DNA from: an uncultured Chloroflexia bacterium
GTDB lineage: Bacteria > Chloroflexota > Limnocylindria > Limnocylindrales > CSP1-4
Length of the DNA: 64,000 bases
Reading direction: 5' to 3'
Assembly (NCBI GenBank): GCA_963734535.1
Contig: CAVTHS010000008.1
Location: forward strand, 448,001-512,000
Shown here: positions 58,549 to 63,889 of the stretch, piece by piece
Layout of the letters: each line of letters opens with the position of its first letter
How positions within the stretch are numbered: the first letter of the stretch is position 1
Translations under genes and position numbers: made by a program
Notes under the pieces: generated by a model
The model's database searches: none
What the model saw: the letters and a program-made list of their open reading frames with translations, nothing else
Told to the model about the DNA's origin: nothing

Positions 58549-58968
58549 TCAGCCGGCCCGCGTCACATCCTCCTTCAGCTCCAGGACCAGCTGCATCAGT
58601 CGATCCACGGATGGGTCGAGGAGGTCGTGGAGCACGGGGTCGACGTCGCCGAGCCCCCCCAGTCGCTCGACACGGACATCGCCGAGGCCTTCCCAGGTGA
58701 TGCCCAGCAGCCCGCTGATCCTTCGCGCCGCGTCCTGCTCCTCGCTCTGGAGGTGGAACGTGTCGGCCACTCGGGCGATTTCCGCCCGAATCTCGTCGAT
58801 CAACGCCTCCATCCGGACCCGCTGCTCGGCAGAGAACGGCGCGCGATCGCGACGATAGAGACGCCCGAAAGCGTCTTCATCCATCAGGCGGCGCACCGTC
58901 GCAAGGCGCTCCTCGAGCAGCCGCAACCTGATCGTTACGGCCCGCTCCTGGCCGGGGTTGAGGTTCAT
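58549..58968 (-). CDS. Hypothetical alpha-helical protein downstream of the MutS-like pair
   Basis: MNLNPGQERAVTIRLRLLEERL...RLGGLGDVDP. Confidence 0.7.
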   Translation of the reverse strand: MNLNPGQERAVTIRLRLLEERLATVRRLMDEDAFGRLYRRDRAPFSAEQRVRMEALIDEIRAEIARVADTFHLQSEEQDAARRISGLLGITWEGLGDVRVERLGGLGDVDPVLHDLLDPSVDRLMQLVLELKEDVTRAG

Positions 58969-59026
58969 GCGACGCCAATGGTCGCGGGCGCAAGGCCGTG
59001 GCCCGGGCCTGCATCTCGCAACGCGC

Positions 59027-60555
59027 TCACGCGGCCTCGCCGGAGTCGGCGCTGTCAAGTCCGTCGTGGCCGAAGACCCGGCGGTAGACGTCCCGCCCGA
59101 AGCTCGTCGGCAGCGGCGGCGCTTCGCGGAGCAGGAACGGCCGCTCGCCGTCCGTCCCTCGTTCCGCCCGGAGGAAGAGAGCGTCGGGCATCCCGAGTTG
59201 ATGGAAGGTCTCGGCGAGGTCGTAGAGGTGGGTGACATAGGCGACCTTCACCCCGTGCTCGAGGAGCGCGAGCACGATTCCTCGGGCGATCTGCGAGCCT
59301 TCGCGCTCGTTTGTCGCCGAGAGCGACTCGTTGAGGAGGACGAGGCTCCGGCCGCTCACGTGATCGATGACCTCGCTCATCCGCGCGAGCTCCTCGTCGA
59401 GCTTGCCTCGCTCCAGCGTCGGGTCCTCCTCCCGCCGGAAGTGGGTCAGCACCGCGTCCCGGACATCCGCGCGATACGCGTCGGCGGCAACGAACATCCC
59501 CGCCTGCATCATGAGCTGCGCGATCCCGATGGCGCGCAGGAGCGTGGACTTTCCTCCCCCATTGGCGCCCGTGATGACCAGGAGTGCCTTGCCATCCCCA
59601 GCAACGTCGTTCCCGATCGCACGTCCGTCGATCCTGAGGCTGAGGGCCGGGTCGTAGAGCCCGCGGGCTGTGAGCGTCGCCGACCCCACGGCGGGCGGGC
59701 CAGGGAAGCACAGGGGCTCACCCTTCGCGGCGAGCACTGCGTGGAGGTTGAGACAGCCAACGTAGAAGGCGAGCTCGGTCCGAAGCTGCTCGAAGAACCT
59801 GTGGACGTGCTCGGTCGACTCGGCGAGCGCCGCCGCTGCCGATGCGAGCCCCGCATCGCGGATCTCGCTGAGCGTGTGCATCCCGGCGTCGTCGCGCGCG
59901 ACCGACCTCGTAGGCGAAGCTGCGCCGCTCCTCGAGCCCGATCCACTCGCGCCAGGTCCGGCCGTCGCGGTGCCGCCGCCGCAGCACGAGGTCGGCCGCC
60001 CGCCCTTCCGGTCCGAGACGTGCGCTCACGAGCACCCCGCGTTCGATCGCTGAGCCGTTTCACGTGCTGCTCGACGGATCGAAGGTACGTGTCGTCAAGC
60101 TCTGCTTCGACGGTCTCGAAGAAGCGGCGGAACCCCTCCGACGAGAATCGGGCGGCATGCGCCGCGGAGATCGCGCGCAGCCGTCGAAACGACCCGAGGT
60201 AGACGACGAGGGCCGCCACGGACCGGTGGACCACGGCGTCCGGGGAGCGCAGCCCGTAGCCCCAGACCTTGCGACGCTCGCCTTCCTGCGTCTCGAGCGT
60301 GAGCTGGTAGAGCTCCCGGATGACCGCCTCCTCGGCGAGCGCGTCGCGGAGCACGTCCTGCCGGTACGCGATCGAGGCGGGATCACCGGGCGCGGCGAGC
60401 AGGATGTCCCGCGCCACTTCCGCCAGGAGGCCGTCGCGCCCCGCCATCGCGCCGATGACCGTCTCGAGCTCGAGGTCGGCAATGACGGATGCGAGATGGG
60501 CGGCCGGCCGCGCGAGGACGAGGTCGCCGTCGCGGGCGGTCAGGTGCGGCCTCAC
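59027..60555 (-). CDS. MutS-related ATPase (domain V, no mismatch-binding domain), frameshifts near 60045 and 59900
   Basis: ITGANGGGKST, AQLMMQAGMFV, THFRREED, GKLDEEL, LLNES, YVTH; GTG overlaps the upstream TGA. Confidence 0.85.
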
Positions 60556-62111
60556 GCGGCGACCCGCCCCTTCACGAGCTCGTACGTCAGCCCGTGCTTG
60601 CGAGCGATCGCCTCCGCATACGCAAGGCCGTCGGCGGGCCGGCGTTCGAGCTTGAACGTCCGCCGACCAGGATCGGCGGGGTCCACCGCGGCAACGAGGC
60701 TTACGGTGGTGGCCGTCAGGGACGCGAGCTCGTCGAGGAAGGTGACGACGACCGCGAGCAGGTCGAGCCGGACGGCCGCGCCGAGGATCGCCTCGTTGAG
60801 GAAGAGCGCGTCGCTCACCGTCGTCGAGCTGAAGCTCTCGTTCATCACCAGGAGGGTCCGCGGCGTTGCCGCACCGAGGATCCGGCGGATCCGCTGCAGA
60901 TCATCCTCGAGCTTGCCGGCCAGGTTCCCCAGGTCTTCCGAGCGCTCGAAGTGCGTGTGGATCGCATCGACGAGGAAGACCCGTGCCTCCGTGCCGGGCA
61001 CGGGGCAGCCGAGCCGGGCGAGGTGATGGAGCTGGCCGACCGCCCGCGCGAATGTCGTCTTGCCGCCCTGGTTCGGGCCGGTGACGACGACGATCCGATC
61101 TGTCCCCGCGAGATCGAGGTCGTTCGTGATGATGGCGCGGCCGGGGACCGCGAGCTTCGCGGCGAGTGCGAGGTCGAACACCTCGCGCACGCACGTCGCC
61201 TTCGAGTCGGCCGACACCTCCGGATAGCAGAACTCGAGCCCGTGGGGCCGGAGGTCGTCGATCCGCTCGCGGTACGCAAGGTAGAACTGGATCTCGCGGT
61301 CGAACCCAGCCAGGGTCGGGTCCATGAAGCCGCCGTGGTCGGCGGCGAACGCGATCAGTGCCGCGAAGGCGTCGGGATGCATCCGGGCGACGCCCTCGAG
61401 CACGGCTGCCTCCACGTGATCGAGGGCTCCCTTCGACGGCATCGAGAACTCGGGTGGCGCCACATCGGCTGCCCGGAAGCGCGCGAACGTGGCGCGCAGC
61501 TCCACGCCGTAGTCGGGCTCGGCCTCGTAGGAGCTGACGACGACCCGGCGTCCGGAGATCCGGAGCCGAACGTCGAGCGCGTCCAGCGCGGCGAGGACAC
61601 GTCGGGCATCCGAGCCGAGCGTCGCGAAGGCATCCGAACCAACGTAGCCCCGCAGATGGTCGGCGATCTGCCTGAGGCCGCGCGAGCGCGGGCCGGCCGC
61701 GTCGAGCGTGTCGGCGAGGGCGACGATCGTCGGGACGTAGACCCGCACGGCCTCCAGGAGCCAGCGCTCCCGTTCGTATCGATGGCGGCTGGCTGACGAA
61801 CGCGCCATCCTGCCGCGGACGAGCCGCATCGCGTCCGCGAACGACCGGAGCGAGGCCGTCAATTCGCTGGACTCGAGGTCCCGGAAGACCTCGTGCCGAA
61901 AGGCGACCGCTTCGACATCAGGACACGGCGCGAAGAAGAACCCCCGCAGGTCGTACTCGTCGCGCCGCCACGTGAGCCACGATGCGATCTCGTCGAGGTG
62001 GAGATCAACGACGAAGTCGCCGGACTGGGCCGCCGGCCAGCGGTCGGGAGCGCGGTCGAAGAGGACGCTCACGGCGCCCGGACCTGCCGCCGGGCGTGGA
62101 TCCTCGGTCAT
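60552..62111 (-). CDS. MutS-related ATPase (MutS4-like partner)
   Basis: VTGPNQGGKTT, GCPVP, THFERSED, GKLEDDL, MNESFSSTT, AYAEAIARKHGL. Confidence 0.88.
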   Translation of the reverse strand: MTEDPRPAAGPGAVSVLFDRAPDRWPAAQSGDFVVDLHLDEIASWLTWRRDEYDLRGFFFAPCPDVEAVAFRHEVFRDLESSELTASLRSFADAMRLVRGRMARSSASRHRYERERWLLEAVRVYVPTIVALADTLDAAGPRSRGLRQIADHLRGYVGSDAFATLGSDARRVLAALDALDVRLRISGRRVVVSSYEAEPDYGVELRATFARFRAADVAPPEFSMPSKGALDHVEAAVLEGVARMHPDAFAALIAFAADHGGFMDPTLAGFDREIQFYLAYRERIDDLRPHGLEFCYPEVSADSKATCVREVFDLALAAKLAVPGRAIITNDLDLAGTDRIVVVTGPNQGGKTTFARAVGQLHHLARLGCPVPGTEARVFLVDAIHTHFERSEDLGNLAGKLEDDLQRIRRILGAATPRTLLVMNESFSSTTVSDALFLNEAILGAAVRLDLLAVVVTFLDELASLTATTVSLVAAVDPADPGRRTFKLERRPADGLAYAEAIARKHGLTYELVKGRVAA

Positions 62112-62246
62112 GGCTCGTTCTCACCTGCGACCAGCCGGTCGGTCCCGCGACCGGAGGGTCAACGCTGCGCTCGACTCGGCGCGATCGGAGGTGGTGCTCC
62201 CGACCCTCTTGCTCCCGGATACACGAATGGCTCCTGGAACTGGGTC

Positions 62247-62293
62247 CAGAAGCCATCACCCGCGAACGGGATACGGCGCGAGCTTCATCGCGC
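62247..62293 (-). ncRNA. Fluoride (crcB) riboswitch upstream of the MutS-like pair
   Basis: GCGCGA-UGAAGC-UCGCGC (P1), CCCG-UUCG-CGGG (P2), UGAUGGCUUCU; pseudoknot GAAGC/GCUUC. Confidence 0.8.
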
Positions 62294-62309
62294 GATCGGT
62301 TGTCACCCA

Positions 62310-62338
62310 AGCATGGGCCCAAGCGTGAAGCCCGTCAA
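62310..62338 (-). promoter_or_regulatory. sigma70-type promoter (leftward)
   Basis: TTGACG-17bp-CATGCT just upstream of the riboswitch. Confidence 0.7.
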
Positions 62339-62361
62339 ACAACCGTCTTGCGGGCCGCGCG

Positions 62362-62390
62362 TTGACGGTCGGGCAGGGAGGTCCTACGCT
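62362..62390 (+). promoter_or_regulatory. sigma70-type promoter (rightward)
   Basis: TTGACG-17bp-TACGCT, 8 nt before the riboswitch. Confidence 0.75.
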
Positions 62391-62398
62391 CGCGCCAC

Positions 62399-62462
62399 GG
62401 CGATGGTGTCCGCCGAGACGCTGGTGCGTCTGAACCGCCCGGTATGGGCTGATGGCCCCTCG
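62399..62462 (+). ncRNA. Fluoride (crcB) riboswitch upstream of the PPase-like fusion gene
   Basis: GGCGAUGGUGUCCGCC, an extra hairpin AGACGC/GCGUCU, then AACC-GCCC...GGGC-UGAUGGCCCCU. One pseudoknot mismatch. Confidence 0.8.
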
Positions 62463-62509
62463 ACTGCATCGGCAGACGTGGGGCTTCTTCTTGCCCCGGA
62501 CGGAGGCAC

Positions 62510-63889
62510 ATGACGGCCGACGCCGCGACCCTCGGGCCAGACTCGGGGCATGCTCCGGCACGGCTCCGTATCGAGGTCGTCGAGGCGCTCGGCCCGGGCC
62601 TCGAGCTCGCACACGACCAACGCACGGGTGGCCTCGTTGCTGCGCGCGCCCGGTCCGGCGGCCTGTGGCTCGGGTTCGATCGCGGGGCCCTGGTGGACTC
62701 CGACGACGGGTCCGGCCGCTCAGTGCCCGTCATCGTCGCGGTTCCCGGCTCGACATGGCCAGGCTGCCAGGTCGACGCGGAGATCGTGGGCGCCCTGGCG
62801 GCTGGCGGTCGGACGATCCTCGTCGCGAGGATCAGTGGAGTCCCCGAACCGCTGCCGGCGGTCGCACGCGTCGTCGCCCAGGTGCCCGAAGGGGCGTGGC
62901 TCGACGCGGCAACGGCAGCCGGGATCGCAGCCGCTGCCCGTCGCGAACACCGGCGGCGCCAGGCGATGGACCGGATCGTCGGTGGCCGGGCGTGGGAGGC
63001 GTCGGGGGCAACGCCCGAGGCCGCCCGCTTCACGACCCCGCACTCGCTCGCCGAGTACTCCCTCGGACGGCTACCGCCGCGGTTCCTCCGTGGCCTTCGG
63101 GATCTGCTCGACCCAGGCGAGCGGATCCTCTACTCGATCGAGCGCCCCGGGATCACCGCTACGGGCTTCATCGGGCAGGTCCCACGGCAGGACCGGCGGA
63201 GCGCACTCCTGGTCCTGACCGATCGCCAGGTCGCCTGGCTCGTCGACCACGCGGACCCTGACCGCTACCTCTCGGACTGGGGCATCGATGCCGAGACGAT
63301 CCCGATCGAGCTCGTGACCGCCGCCCGCGTGGTCGAGTCGGGTCGCTGGTGTCGACTCGTCATTGCCACCGACCGTGGCCAGACCGAGGCGCGGCTTCCG
63401 GCCGAGCTCTCATCCGAAGTGGGGGTCGCCGCCCAGCTGATCGAGCGGTTCATCCCGGCCGCGGACGTGCGCCTCCCGCGCCGGCGGTACGTCGTCGAGC
63501 GCCGCAACATCGACTGGTCTCGGCTCGATGCGTTCAGCGGGGGAACGGACGTCCGTTCGCTGACGAGGCAGCTCGATGCCGATGCGGTCGCATGGCTCCT
63601 CGGCCCAGCGCGCCAGGGCCACCCTCGCGCCGAGGCGTGCGCGCTCACCCCCGACTCGATCGCCTTCATCTCCGGTCGCCGCCGTCACGATGTTCCGCTC
63701 GGTGCTGTCCATGCCTTCCGGATCGCCCTCTCGCCTCTCGTCGGGAGGTTCGAGGTCGTCGGGTCGCGGGTGCTGGGCGCGATGACGTTCCCGGCGCCGT
63801 TCGGCGACCTTGCGGGTACGTTCGTCCGCTCGGCGGGCCGCCTGACCGCCACCGTGCCGGGCGTGAGGCACCAGCCATCGCCGACCTGA
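62510..63889 (+). CDS. Hypothetical protein: degenerate family-I pyrophosphatase-like N-domain plus putative PH-like domains
   Basis: GGAGG SD. N-terminal spacing mirrors PPase (IEVVE...AHDQRTGGL...DDGSGRSVPVIV...WPGCQVDAEIVGAL). 'LLDPGERIL...LLVLTDRQV...IPIELVTAA' is bPH-like. Confidence 0.65.
   Translation: MTADAATLGPDSGHAPARLRIEVVEALGPGLELAHDQRTGGLVAARARSGGLWLGFDRGALVDSDDGSGRSVPVIVAVPGSTWPGCQVDAEIVGALAAGGRTILVARISGVPEPLPAVARVVAQVPEGAWLDAATAAGIAAAARREHRRRQAMDRIVGGRAWEASGATPEAARFTTPHSLAEYSLGRLPPRFLRGLRDLLDPGERILYSIERPGITATGFIGQVPRQDRRSALLVLTDRQVAWLVDHADPDRYLSDWGIDAETIPIELVTAARVVESGRWCRLVIATDRGQTEARLPAELSSEVGVAAQLIERFIPAADVRLPRRRYVVERRNIDWSRLDAFSGGTDVRSLTRQLDADAVAWLLGPARQGHPRAEACALTPDSIAFISGRRRHDVPLGAVHAFRIALSPLVGRFEVVGSRVLGAMTFPAPFGDLAGTFVRSAGRLTATVPGVRHQPSPT

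Follow-up and report, generated by a model that had tools for sequence, protein, structure and literature searches.

Back-to-back canonical and variant fluoride-type riboswitch aptamers between a pyrophosphatase-fold gene and a MutS-like operon in a Chloroflexota genome

The fluoride stress regulon is defined by riboswitches that bind fluoride as a Mg-F cluster; among the genes under their control, the less frequent ones offer the best clues to means of coping with fluoride other than export. Here we describe a divergent locus of a Chloroflexota bacterium in which two unlike fluoride-type aptamers stand back to back. The window, i.e., the whole 64,000-nucleotide (nt) stretch of DNA that was analysed, covers positions 448,001 to 512,000 of contig CAVTHS010000008.1 (G000:C8:448001-512000), in an assembly of 3.2 Mb and 14 contigs with 72% G+C that is 89.9% complete and 7.1% contaminated. 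A 2024 review names exporters, Na+/H+ antiporters, pyrophosphatase, enolase, HAD phosphatases, and formate hydrogenlyase as targets of fluoride riboswitches and places pyrophosphatase genes among those most often tied to them; it contains 0 occurrences of MutS or Nudix (PMC11139923). The association with MutS-like genes, cited in the original prediction for this locus as already reported, is in print: the crcB motif was described upstream of mutS by Weinberg 2010 (PMC2864571).

This is a genuine, well-formed pair of a known kind, in which the minus-strand aptamer represents a new variant. The locus resembles the family model RF01734 and the Bacillus cereus crcB leader in its predicted transcriptional ON logic, a GAUGG-type P1 loop, P2, the UGAUG element, a pseudoknot between loop and tail, the A-U linchpin, and a terminator that overlaps the pseudoknot 3' strand, and a mutS-like gene lies downstream as in the published example (PMC2864571). 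We consider it likely that the region is a divergent control region in which two sigma-70-type promoters lead into fluoride-type ON switches of the transcription-termination kind, one driving the gene of a 459-amino-acid (aa) protein and the other a MutS-like operon. This reading is built on the aptamer architecture and conservation, promoters, alternative hairpins, protein folds, and gene associations that we observed.

Two unlike aptamers behind mirrored promoters

The control region consists of the following elements, given in window coordinates; terminator pairings are from minimum free energy (MFE) folds.

62310-62338, minus strand: promoter of the left operon, -35 TTGACG (62338-62333), 17-nt spacer, -10 CATGCT (62315-62310), by direct reading
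62362-62390, plus strand: promoter of the right gene, -35 TTGACG (62362-62367), 17-nt spacer, -10 TACGCT (62385-62390), by direct reading
62399-62460, plus strand: canonical fluoride riboswitch aptamer, RF01734 37.7 bits against a cut-off of 34, E 7.5e-7 for the whole window
62454-62492, plus strand: intrinsic terminator, an imperfect hairpin (62454-62485) followed by UCUUCUU
62248-62292, minus strand: variant fluoride-type aptamer, RF01734 14.7 bits, descriptor match with 5/5 pseudoknot pairs, conserved in relatives and metagenomes
62217-62257, minus strand: terminator-like hairpin of 13 bp (62257-62226) with a partly U-rich tail

The plus-strand aptamer is the only RF01734 match above the cut-off, both in the window and in the whole genome, and departs from the family model by a 15-nt hairpin inserted after P1. 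The 3' strand of its pseudoknot, GGCCCC, is at the same time the 5' arm of the terminator, where it pairs with GGGGCU. Downstream of the terminator follow GGAGG and the ATG at 62510.

The minus-strand element reads directly as gCGCG-AUGAAGCU-CGCGc, a GUAU linker, CCCG-UUCG-CGGG, and UGAUG-GCUUC-U. It thus retains P1 (CGCG/CGCG, 4/4), an 8-nt loop (AUGAAGCU), a P2 of 4 bp (CCCG/CGGG), both GAUG elements, and a complete pseudoknot (strand GCUUC, 5/5). It departs from the family consensus in a flipped outer P1 pair, in two pseudoknot positions that changed on both sides so that five pairs still form, and in an A/U linker in place of AACC. The linchpin nucleotides, the A of UGAUG and the U after the pseudoknot strand, are found in both aptamers and in every variant row of our alignment A2; the corresponding A40-U48 linchpin of the B. 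cereus riboswitch is essential for fluoride locking (PMC8752731). When the 81-nt minus-strand stretch was searched by itself, RF01734 was the best family (E 0.032), the model passing over the P2 part, and in an 801-nt search the variant was absent from the RF01734 listing at E<=10. Since Rfam-based annotation misses the variant at 14.7 bits, part of the regulon is invisible in these Chloroflexota.

The original prediction had placed a distinct crcB-type aptamer behind each promoter and had named sub-threshold scores as a reason for doubt. The two differ in kind: the minus-strand one is a variant scoring below the threshold, a point that the prediction had missed, and comparative evidence nevertheless identifies it as a genuine conserved aptamer with the family's architecture. 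Our own descriptor (P1 4/4, two GAUG elements, pseudoknot of at least 4/5 pairs, and P2), applied to both strands of the 3.2-Mb genome, returned 11 matches, nine of which are longer (57-141 nt) than the window pair (44 and 61 nt). A chance match was rejected as an explanation of the minus-strand element: the only two compact matches in the genome are the neighbouring window aptamers, and a 5/5 pseudoknot occurs solely in the minus-strand one.

In the minus-strand leader, GAUGGCUUCUGGA pairs with UCCAGGAGCCAUU (62257-62226) and is followed by the tail CGUGUAUCC. The 5' arm of this hairpin comprises UGAUG and the pseudoknot 3' strand of the variant aptamer, and the same hairpin recurs 3' of the variant in relatives with clear U-tracts, e.g., GUUUUCGUUUCC.

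The mirrored TTGACG promoters had been described across 81 bp, and their hexamers, spacers, and span (outer limits 62310-62390) were all re-read as claimed. In an alignment of the window with four metagenome contigs and two related genomes, seven sequences in all, the minus-strand promoter boxes are unchanged in 7/7, and the plus-strand boxes are unchanged in all six that carry the canonical aptamer (6/6), across an interval between the two -35 boxes that ranges from about 13 to 60 nt. In more distant relatives, TTGACA-N17/18-AACAAT stands at the same distance upstream of the variant aptamer. The comparative evidence and the conserved boxes agree with the earlier view of both leaders as fluoride-type riboswitches with promoters of their own, with ligand binding predicted from sequence. 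DNA contigs from runs X1 and X7 match both aptamers and leave the 91-95 bases between them unaligned (window 62302-62398); related strains retain both aptamers around a replaced promoter spacer.

As we propose it, in cells without fluoride the 3' strand of each pseudoknot would pair downstream into the terminator hairpin. When the Mg-F cluster is bound, the pseudoknot and the A-U linchpin would lock, no terminator would form, and transcription would read through. The plus-strand switch would serve a single gene, whose product combines a pyrophosphatase-fold domain, apparently devoid of the catalytic constellation, with two PH-like domains; the minus-strand switch would serve two paralogous ATPases resembling the MutS2 core, together with a small helical protein.

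Proteins encoded on either side

The two predicted transcription units contain four genes.

62510-63889, plus strand: 459-aa protein with a pyrophosphatase-fold domain (residues ~13-157) and PH-like domains (~180-325 and ~352-454)
60552-62111, minus strand: MutS-like ATPase 1, 519 aa, domains III-V only, MutS_V PF00488 8e-15
59027-60555, minus strand: MutS-like ATPase 2, a paralogue in three frames in the assembly, MutS_V PF00488 2e-18 in the C-terminal part
58549-58965, minus strand: 138-aa helical protein, last gene of the left operon, an open reading frame with coding-type G+C at third codon positions (GC3)

The 459-aa protein has no Pfam match even at E<=10 (PF00719, the family I pyrophosphatase family, included), no NCBIfam match, and no match by sequence to any PDB entry, pyrophosphatases included, whether searched as a single sequence or as a profile; the protein-atlas leads, bPH_3 and DUF4429, are all below 0.9. 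Its homologues number at least 185, and Pfam recognises a domain in none of them. The similarity emerges from the fold. In an AlphaFold model built from a 43-sequence input (mean predicted local distance difference test score, pLDDT, 81.4), residues ~13-157 match family I pyrophosphatases with a Foldseek E of 1e-7 and a template-modelling (TM) score of about 0.55 on the target, and with VIA-align Z scores of 12.6-12.7 at a root-mean-square deviation of 3.0-3.3 A over 116-124 residues. The PH-domain matches have middling VIA-align values (Z 7-8.2 for ~180-325 and 6.3 for 352-454). The gene thus encodes the pyrophosphatase-fold fusion originally proposed, one that shares the fold of the PF00719 enzymes and differs from them in its two fused PH-like domains and, possibly, its active site.

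Pyrophosphatase is a classical fluoride target, and the 459-aa protein could be a decoy, a sensor, or a fluoride-tolerant relative. A normal pyrophosphatase is encoded elsewhere in the genome (C3). When the 459-aa protein is aligned to it with hhalign, at a probability of only 21%, S68, R70, and P73 fall on the Asp positions of DxDxxD, and the next Asp/Asp/Lys loop is absent; we take this motif and loop to be the metal-binding and catalytic residues of family I pyrophosphatases. A conserved [DE]xDDGxGR stretch remains in the 459-aa family. Whether the protein acts as a non-catalytic binder of ligands of the Mg, pyrophosphate, or fluoride type is a tentative suggestion that we rate as rather doubtful.

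On the left, two MutS_V proteins bear out the MutS-like pair of the original prediction. The model of protein 1 (pLDDT 86.5, predicted TM score 0.84) has as its best fold match, over the whole length, the MutS2 core of Thermus thermophilus (7vuf; E 5.7e-18, TM 0.60/0.67), with which it shares the lever and clamp helices and the ABC-type ATPase domain V. Walker A is present in the MutS-like proteins. Pfam searches found in them no mismatch-binding domain I or connector domain II, unlike in MutS1, and no Smr nuclease domain, unlike in MutS2; the matched MutS2 core likewise has neither domain I nor domain II. They also differ from MutS2 in their length of about 510 aa, in their predicted induction by a riboswitch, and in scoring 49 and 69 bits against the TIGR01069 (mutS2) cut-off of 400. 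The family of protein 1 is very large (7931 of 8000 scored candidates at E<=0.001), and sources call it "MutS" or "MutS-related protein". The long-unexplained "mutS" association can now be described as one with pairs of MutS2-core-like ATPases that lack both the mismatch-binding and the nuclease domain.

The start of gene 2 precedes the stop of gene 1 by 4 nt, and the two paralogues side by side are reminiscent of heterodimeric MutS homologues; the pair would probably form a heterodimer from translationally coupled genes. We suggest, with little confidence, that it may use ATP to clamp onto a nucleic acid or a nucleoprotein. Since the Bacillus subtilis complex of MutS2 with a collided disome (7qv3) is among the fold matches of protein 1, a nucleoprotein substrate other than mismatched DNA is conceivable as a speculation. 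The 138-aa protein belongs to no Pfam or NCBIfam family, and its homologues sit after MutS-like pairs in metagenome loci. In five loci (L096, L109, L110, L152, and L153), such homologues stand 600-1400 nt upstream of another copy of the variant, which precedes Nudix and MoxR genes or, in L110, only MoxR; some relatives therefore have several operons under riboswitch control close together.

Distribution and targets of the variant aptamer

The exact two-part pattern of the variant was found in 17 of 401 sampled genomes of the class, and the reversed control gave 0 matches. It also occurs in 90 metagenome stretches, in which the first gene 3' of the variant, by Pfam name, is most often MutS-like gene 1 (41 stretches), followed by Nudix (23; succeeded by the 459-aa family in 10 and by MoxR in 9) and a small Trp-rich protein (8; succeeded by a metallophosphoesterase or MFS gene). 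MoxR and MFS come first in three stretches each, no gene was recognised in four, and eight had too little sequence. In none of the 90 does crcB lie directly downstream. The variant and a canonical aptamer stand back to back in 13 of the 90 stretches, so the layout of the window is a recurrent design. The variant class, with its largely cytoplasmic targets, the 459-aa family, and the gene associations of the two appear to be new; the literature searched gave no account of the variant.

Several less frequent targets deserve a description of their own. In L120 (276-2057), the Nudix and the 459-aa-type protein, adjacent genes elsewhere, are fused in one 594-aa frame behind the variant. In L132 (568-1800), L141, and L170, the gene next after the variant encodes an MFS transporter, which in L115 comes behind the small Trp-rich protein; this protein, of which our genome contains no close homologue, may be a transporter connected with fluoride that has so far escaped recognition. 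The small Trp-rich protein itself (L134 2066-2476, L138, L140, L144, L145, and L154) has no Pfam family, carries repeated W..QW and FSGFG motifs, and is followed by a calcineurin-like metallophosphoesterase or an MFS gene.

The 459-aa and MutS-like families are carried by 25 and 24 of the 401 class genomes, respectively, co-occur in 15, and in several genomes lie side by side or share an operon. RF01734 matches stand directly upstream of the 459-aa family in L011, L012, L016, L028, L030-L033, L037, and L038. In 27 carrier genomes, RF01734 matches precede the 459-aa family in seven cases and MutS-like gene 1 in five, one of which is the variant itself at 22.6 bits; the other targets are CrcB (2), Na+/H+ exchangers (4), MoxR (2), a DUF190-CBS protein, and a NuoH-like subunit. 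The 459-aa family is thus, by sequence, a consistent riboswitch target in relatives, and the canonical aptamers of carrier genomes are predicted to control textbook fluoride genes (CrcB, Na+/H+ exchanger, NuoH-like, and DUF190-CBS).

The leader of MutS-like gene 1 exchanges aptamer types among class genomes. It contains the variant in our genome and in L042, L043, L046, L049, L052, L053, and L054, a canonical or canonical-like aptamer in L044, L050, L055, L056, L057, and L065, and an odd form in L047 and L059. In L044, L055, and L056, UGACG replaces the nearly invariant UGAUG, the pseudoknot is still complementary, and the scores of 24-26 bits are below the RF01734 cut-off. In some contigs the variant is followed by Nudix and then the 459-aa family. 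Since the targets of the variant overlap those of canonical aptamers in other genomes, fluoride is likely its ligand too; this is the parsimonious reading, and we infer that fluoride is the ligand of both aptamers of the locus.

Exporters and competing explanations

A number of observations weigh against the picture of two functional fluoride switches that lead to an export-independent response. The variant scores far below the RF01734 cut-off and lacks the conserved AACC of the P1-P2 linker. A sigma-70 consensus scan and a simple terminator scan of the region returned 0 sites, for the former because both -10 boxes match TATAAT at 3/6 only. In the window, the U content of the tail after the variant terminator is only moderate, and between this terminator and the start codon lies a structured leader of about 110 nt. 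In L051, L058, and L060-L064, no recognisable riboswitch precedes the MutS-like gene. MutS-like gene 2 is off frame twice relative to an intact orthologue (L011), near 60043/60044 and at 59899-59904; short-read DNA contigs of run X1 have one base fewer at 59899 and at 60044/60046, exactly at both breaks, so these are probably assembly indels or polymorphism. The apparent loss of catalytic residues in the 459-aa protein comes from the low-confidence profile alignment described above.

The pairing evidence also has to be read with regard to how its sequences were chosen. Among the 58 distinct variant cores over all loci with the pattern, the linker is rich in A and U, the P2 loop differs from core to core, and the inner P2 pair is either U-A or C-G; the sets were selected by P1 and pseudoknot sequence, which makes these two parts invariant and covariation within the class visible in P2 only. 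The paired fraction of P1 and the pseudoknot is 96.5% in 38 rows, canonical and variant, against 39-52% in slid controls, with compensatory change in 4 of 9 pairs. These figures are supportive rather than independent: a pairing descriptor served to choose the rows, and the counts are partly circular.

The remaining points against this picture concern exporters. The four metagenome contigs L134/L144, L138, and L154 carry both the variant and, on the other strand, an operon of a Na+/H+ exchanger, CrcB, and DUF190, which by our descriptor is preceded by a canonical aptamer in L138 and L154 and by none in L134/L144. The genomes G035 and G347 carry both the 459-aa gene and CrcB.

The original prediction had noted that no Fluc or CLC-F exporter lies in the window. 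This extends to the whole genome, at its 89.9% completeness: CrcB (PF02537) has 0 matches, and the only CLC is of the chloride type by its best PDB match (1kpl, 96 bits, against 38 bits, partial, for the CLC-F 6d0j). None of the 12 genomes of the genus that were searched, this one included, has a CrcB match. A divergent CLC-like protein of ~455 aa occurs in five genomes of the same genus (L179-L183, in G407, G297, G408, G410, and G200), with Pfam scores of 67-84 bits and GPEGG in place of GREGP. It has no PDB sequence match and, by descriptor, no aptamer; G297 and G200, the two of these genomes covered by the class searches, carry neither the 459-aa nor the MutS-like genes.

Across the class, CrcB is present in 115 of 401 genomes (113 of 399 without the unpublished genomes G087 and G159). 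None of the 17 variant carriers has it, compared with 115 of 384 others (Fisher p 0.0045), and it occurs in 2 of 25 carriers of the 459-aa family against 113 of 376 others (p 0.02); these p-values overstate the case because kin are not independent. Carriers of the MutS-like gene have it at the background rate (7/24 vs 108/377, p 1.0). The depletion among carriers turns exporter-less fluoride tolerance into a question testable with defined genes. In the co-occurrence survey that had been proposed for these genes, the 459-aa family, MutS-like genes, and aptamers do recur together, and the CrcB depletion does not extend to MutS-like carriers.

We infer that the proteins of the locus would mitigate intracellular effects of fluoride rather than export it. 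The explanation that competes best, to which we give a little less than an even chance, is that the locus is an accessory of an ordinary export response, with an exporter in the unassembled tenth of the genome or in an unrecognised family. The incompleteness and contamination of the assembly leave room for this, the MutS-like carriers, the four CrcB-bearing variant contigs, and G035 and G347 agree with it, and the MFS genes behind the variant and the divergent CLC-like genes of the genus offer candidates. It is opposed by the lack of CrcB in all searched genomes of the genus and in all variant carriers, by the chloride-type affinity of the sole CLC, and by the lack of a close homologue of the riboswitch-linked MFS in this genome. 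The response suggested earlier as "possibly export-independent" is accordingly supported in part only, because four metagenome contigs pair the variant with a CrcB operon.

The variant could also be a crcB-motif subclass of its own. In the fuller form of this idea, which we regard as unlikely, the subclass has a fixed P1 and pseudoknot sequence, is retained alongside canonical aptamers, and is dedicated to a cytoplasmic regulon of Mg-dependent phosphoryl transfer. This regulon would comprise the MutS2-core-like pairs, MoxR, a metallophosphoesterase, and Nudix, alone or combined with the pyrophosphatase-fold protein. The subclass could respond to a different threshold or ligand and, together with the 459-aa protein, would form an intracellular fluoride-damage response able to replace Fluc in lineages in which searches detect no exporter. 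A slightly less probable version holds that it is functionally distinct, with another fluoride range or another small ligand, and serves intracellular enzymes, the canonical type serving exporters. A distinct subclass would fit the missing AACC linker, the great uniformity of the variant sequence, a target list that includes MutS-like, Nudix, Trp-rich, MoxR, and MFS genes and never crcB, and the canonical type of the aptamer before crcB, on the opposite strand, in the variant contigs L138 and L154. The 13 back-to-back pairs would likewise mean that both types are kept side by side, although unlike sequences in this arrangement could merely avoid a long inverted repeat. Against such a division, MutS-like gene 1, the 459-aa family, and MoxR are also targets of canonical aptamers in sister genomes, and every element known to matter for fluoride locking is retained. 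Moreover, the base changes need not shift specificity, because fluoride is contacted by backbone phosphates and Mg2+ (PMC8752731).

One could also see in the minus-strand element the remnant of an aptamer that has decayed and lost its function, ahead of a constitutive MutS-like operon, as its sub-threshold score and the frameshifted gene 2 might suggest. This view is scarcely credible and was rejected, given its near-perfect conservation in relatives despite a diverged flanking spacer, the pairing kept in 58 distinct cores, the conserved terminator, and the X1 DNA contigs without the extra bases at both frameshift sites.

Returning to the divergent fluoride-type control region that we favour, contigs of the metatranscriptome run X20 are 90-95% alike to the window over 62135-62304, 62446-62584, 62971-63228, and 60742-61090; they come from a relative, their starts, ends, and strand are not readable, and they are at most a weak hint of expression. 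The original prediction had left room for a right operon running beyond the window, and no continuation is visible there. The next plus-strand genes encode a Ni-superoxide dismutase, named by eye from its N-terminal HCDIPCGIYDP motif, and a signal-peptidase-like maturation protease (window coordinates 64174-65232; L010 2174-3232). Because these genes start at least 236 nt past the stop of the 459-aa gene, the right-hand transcription unit would be a single gene.

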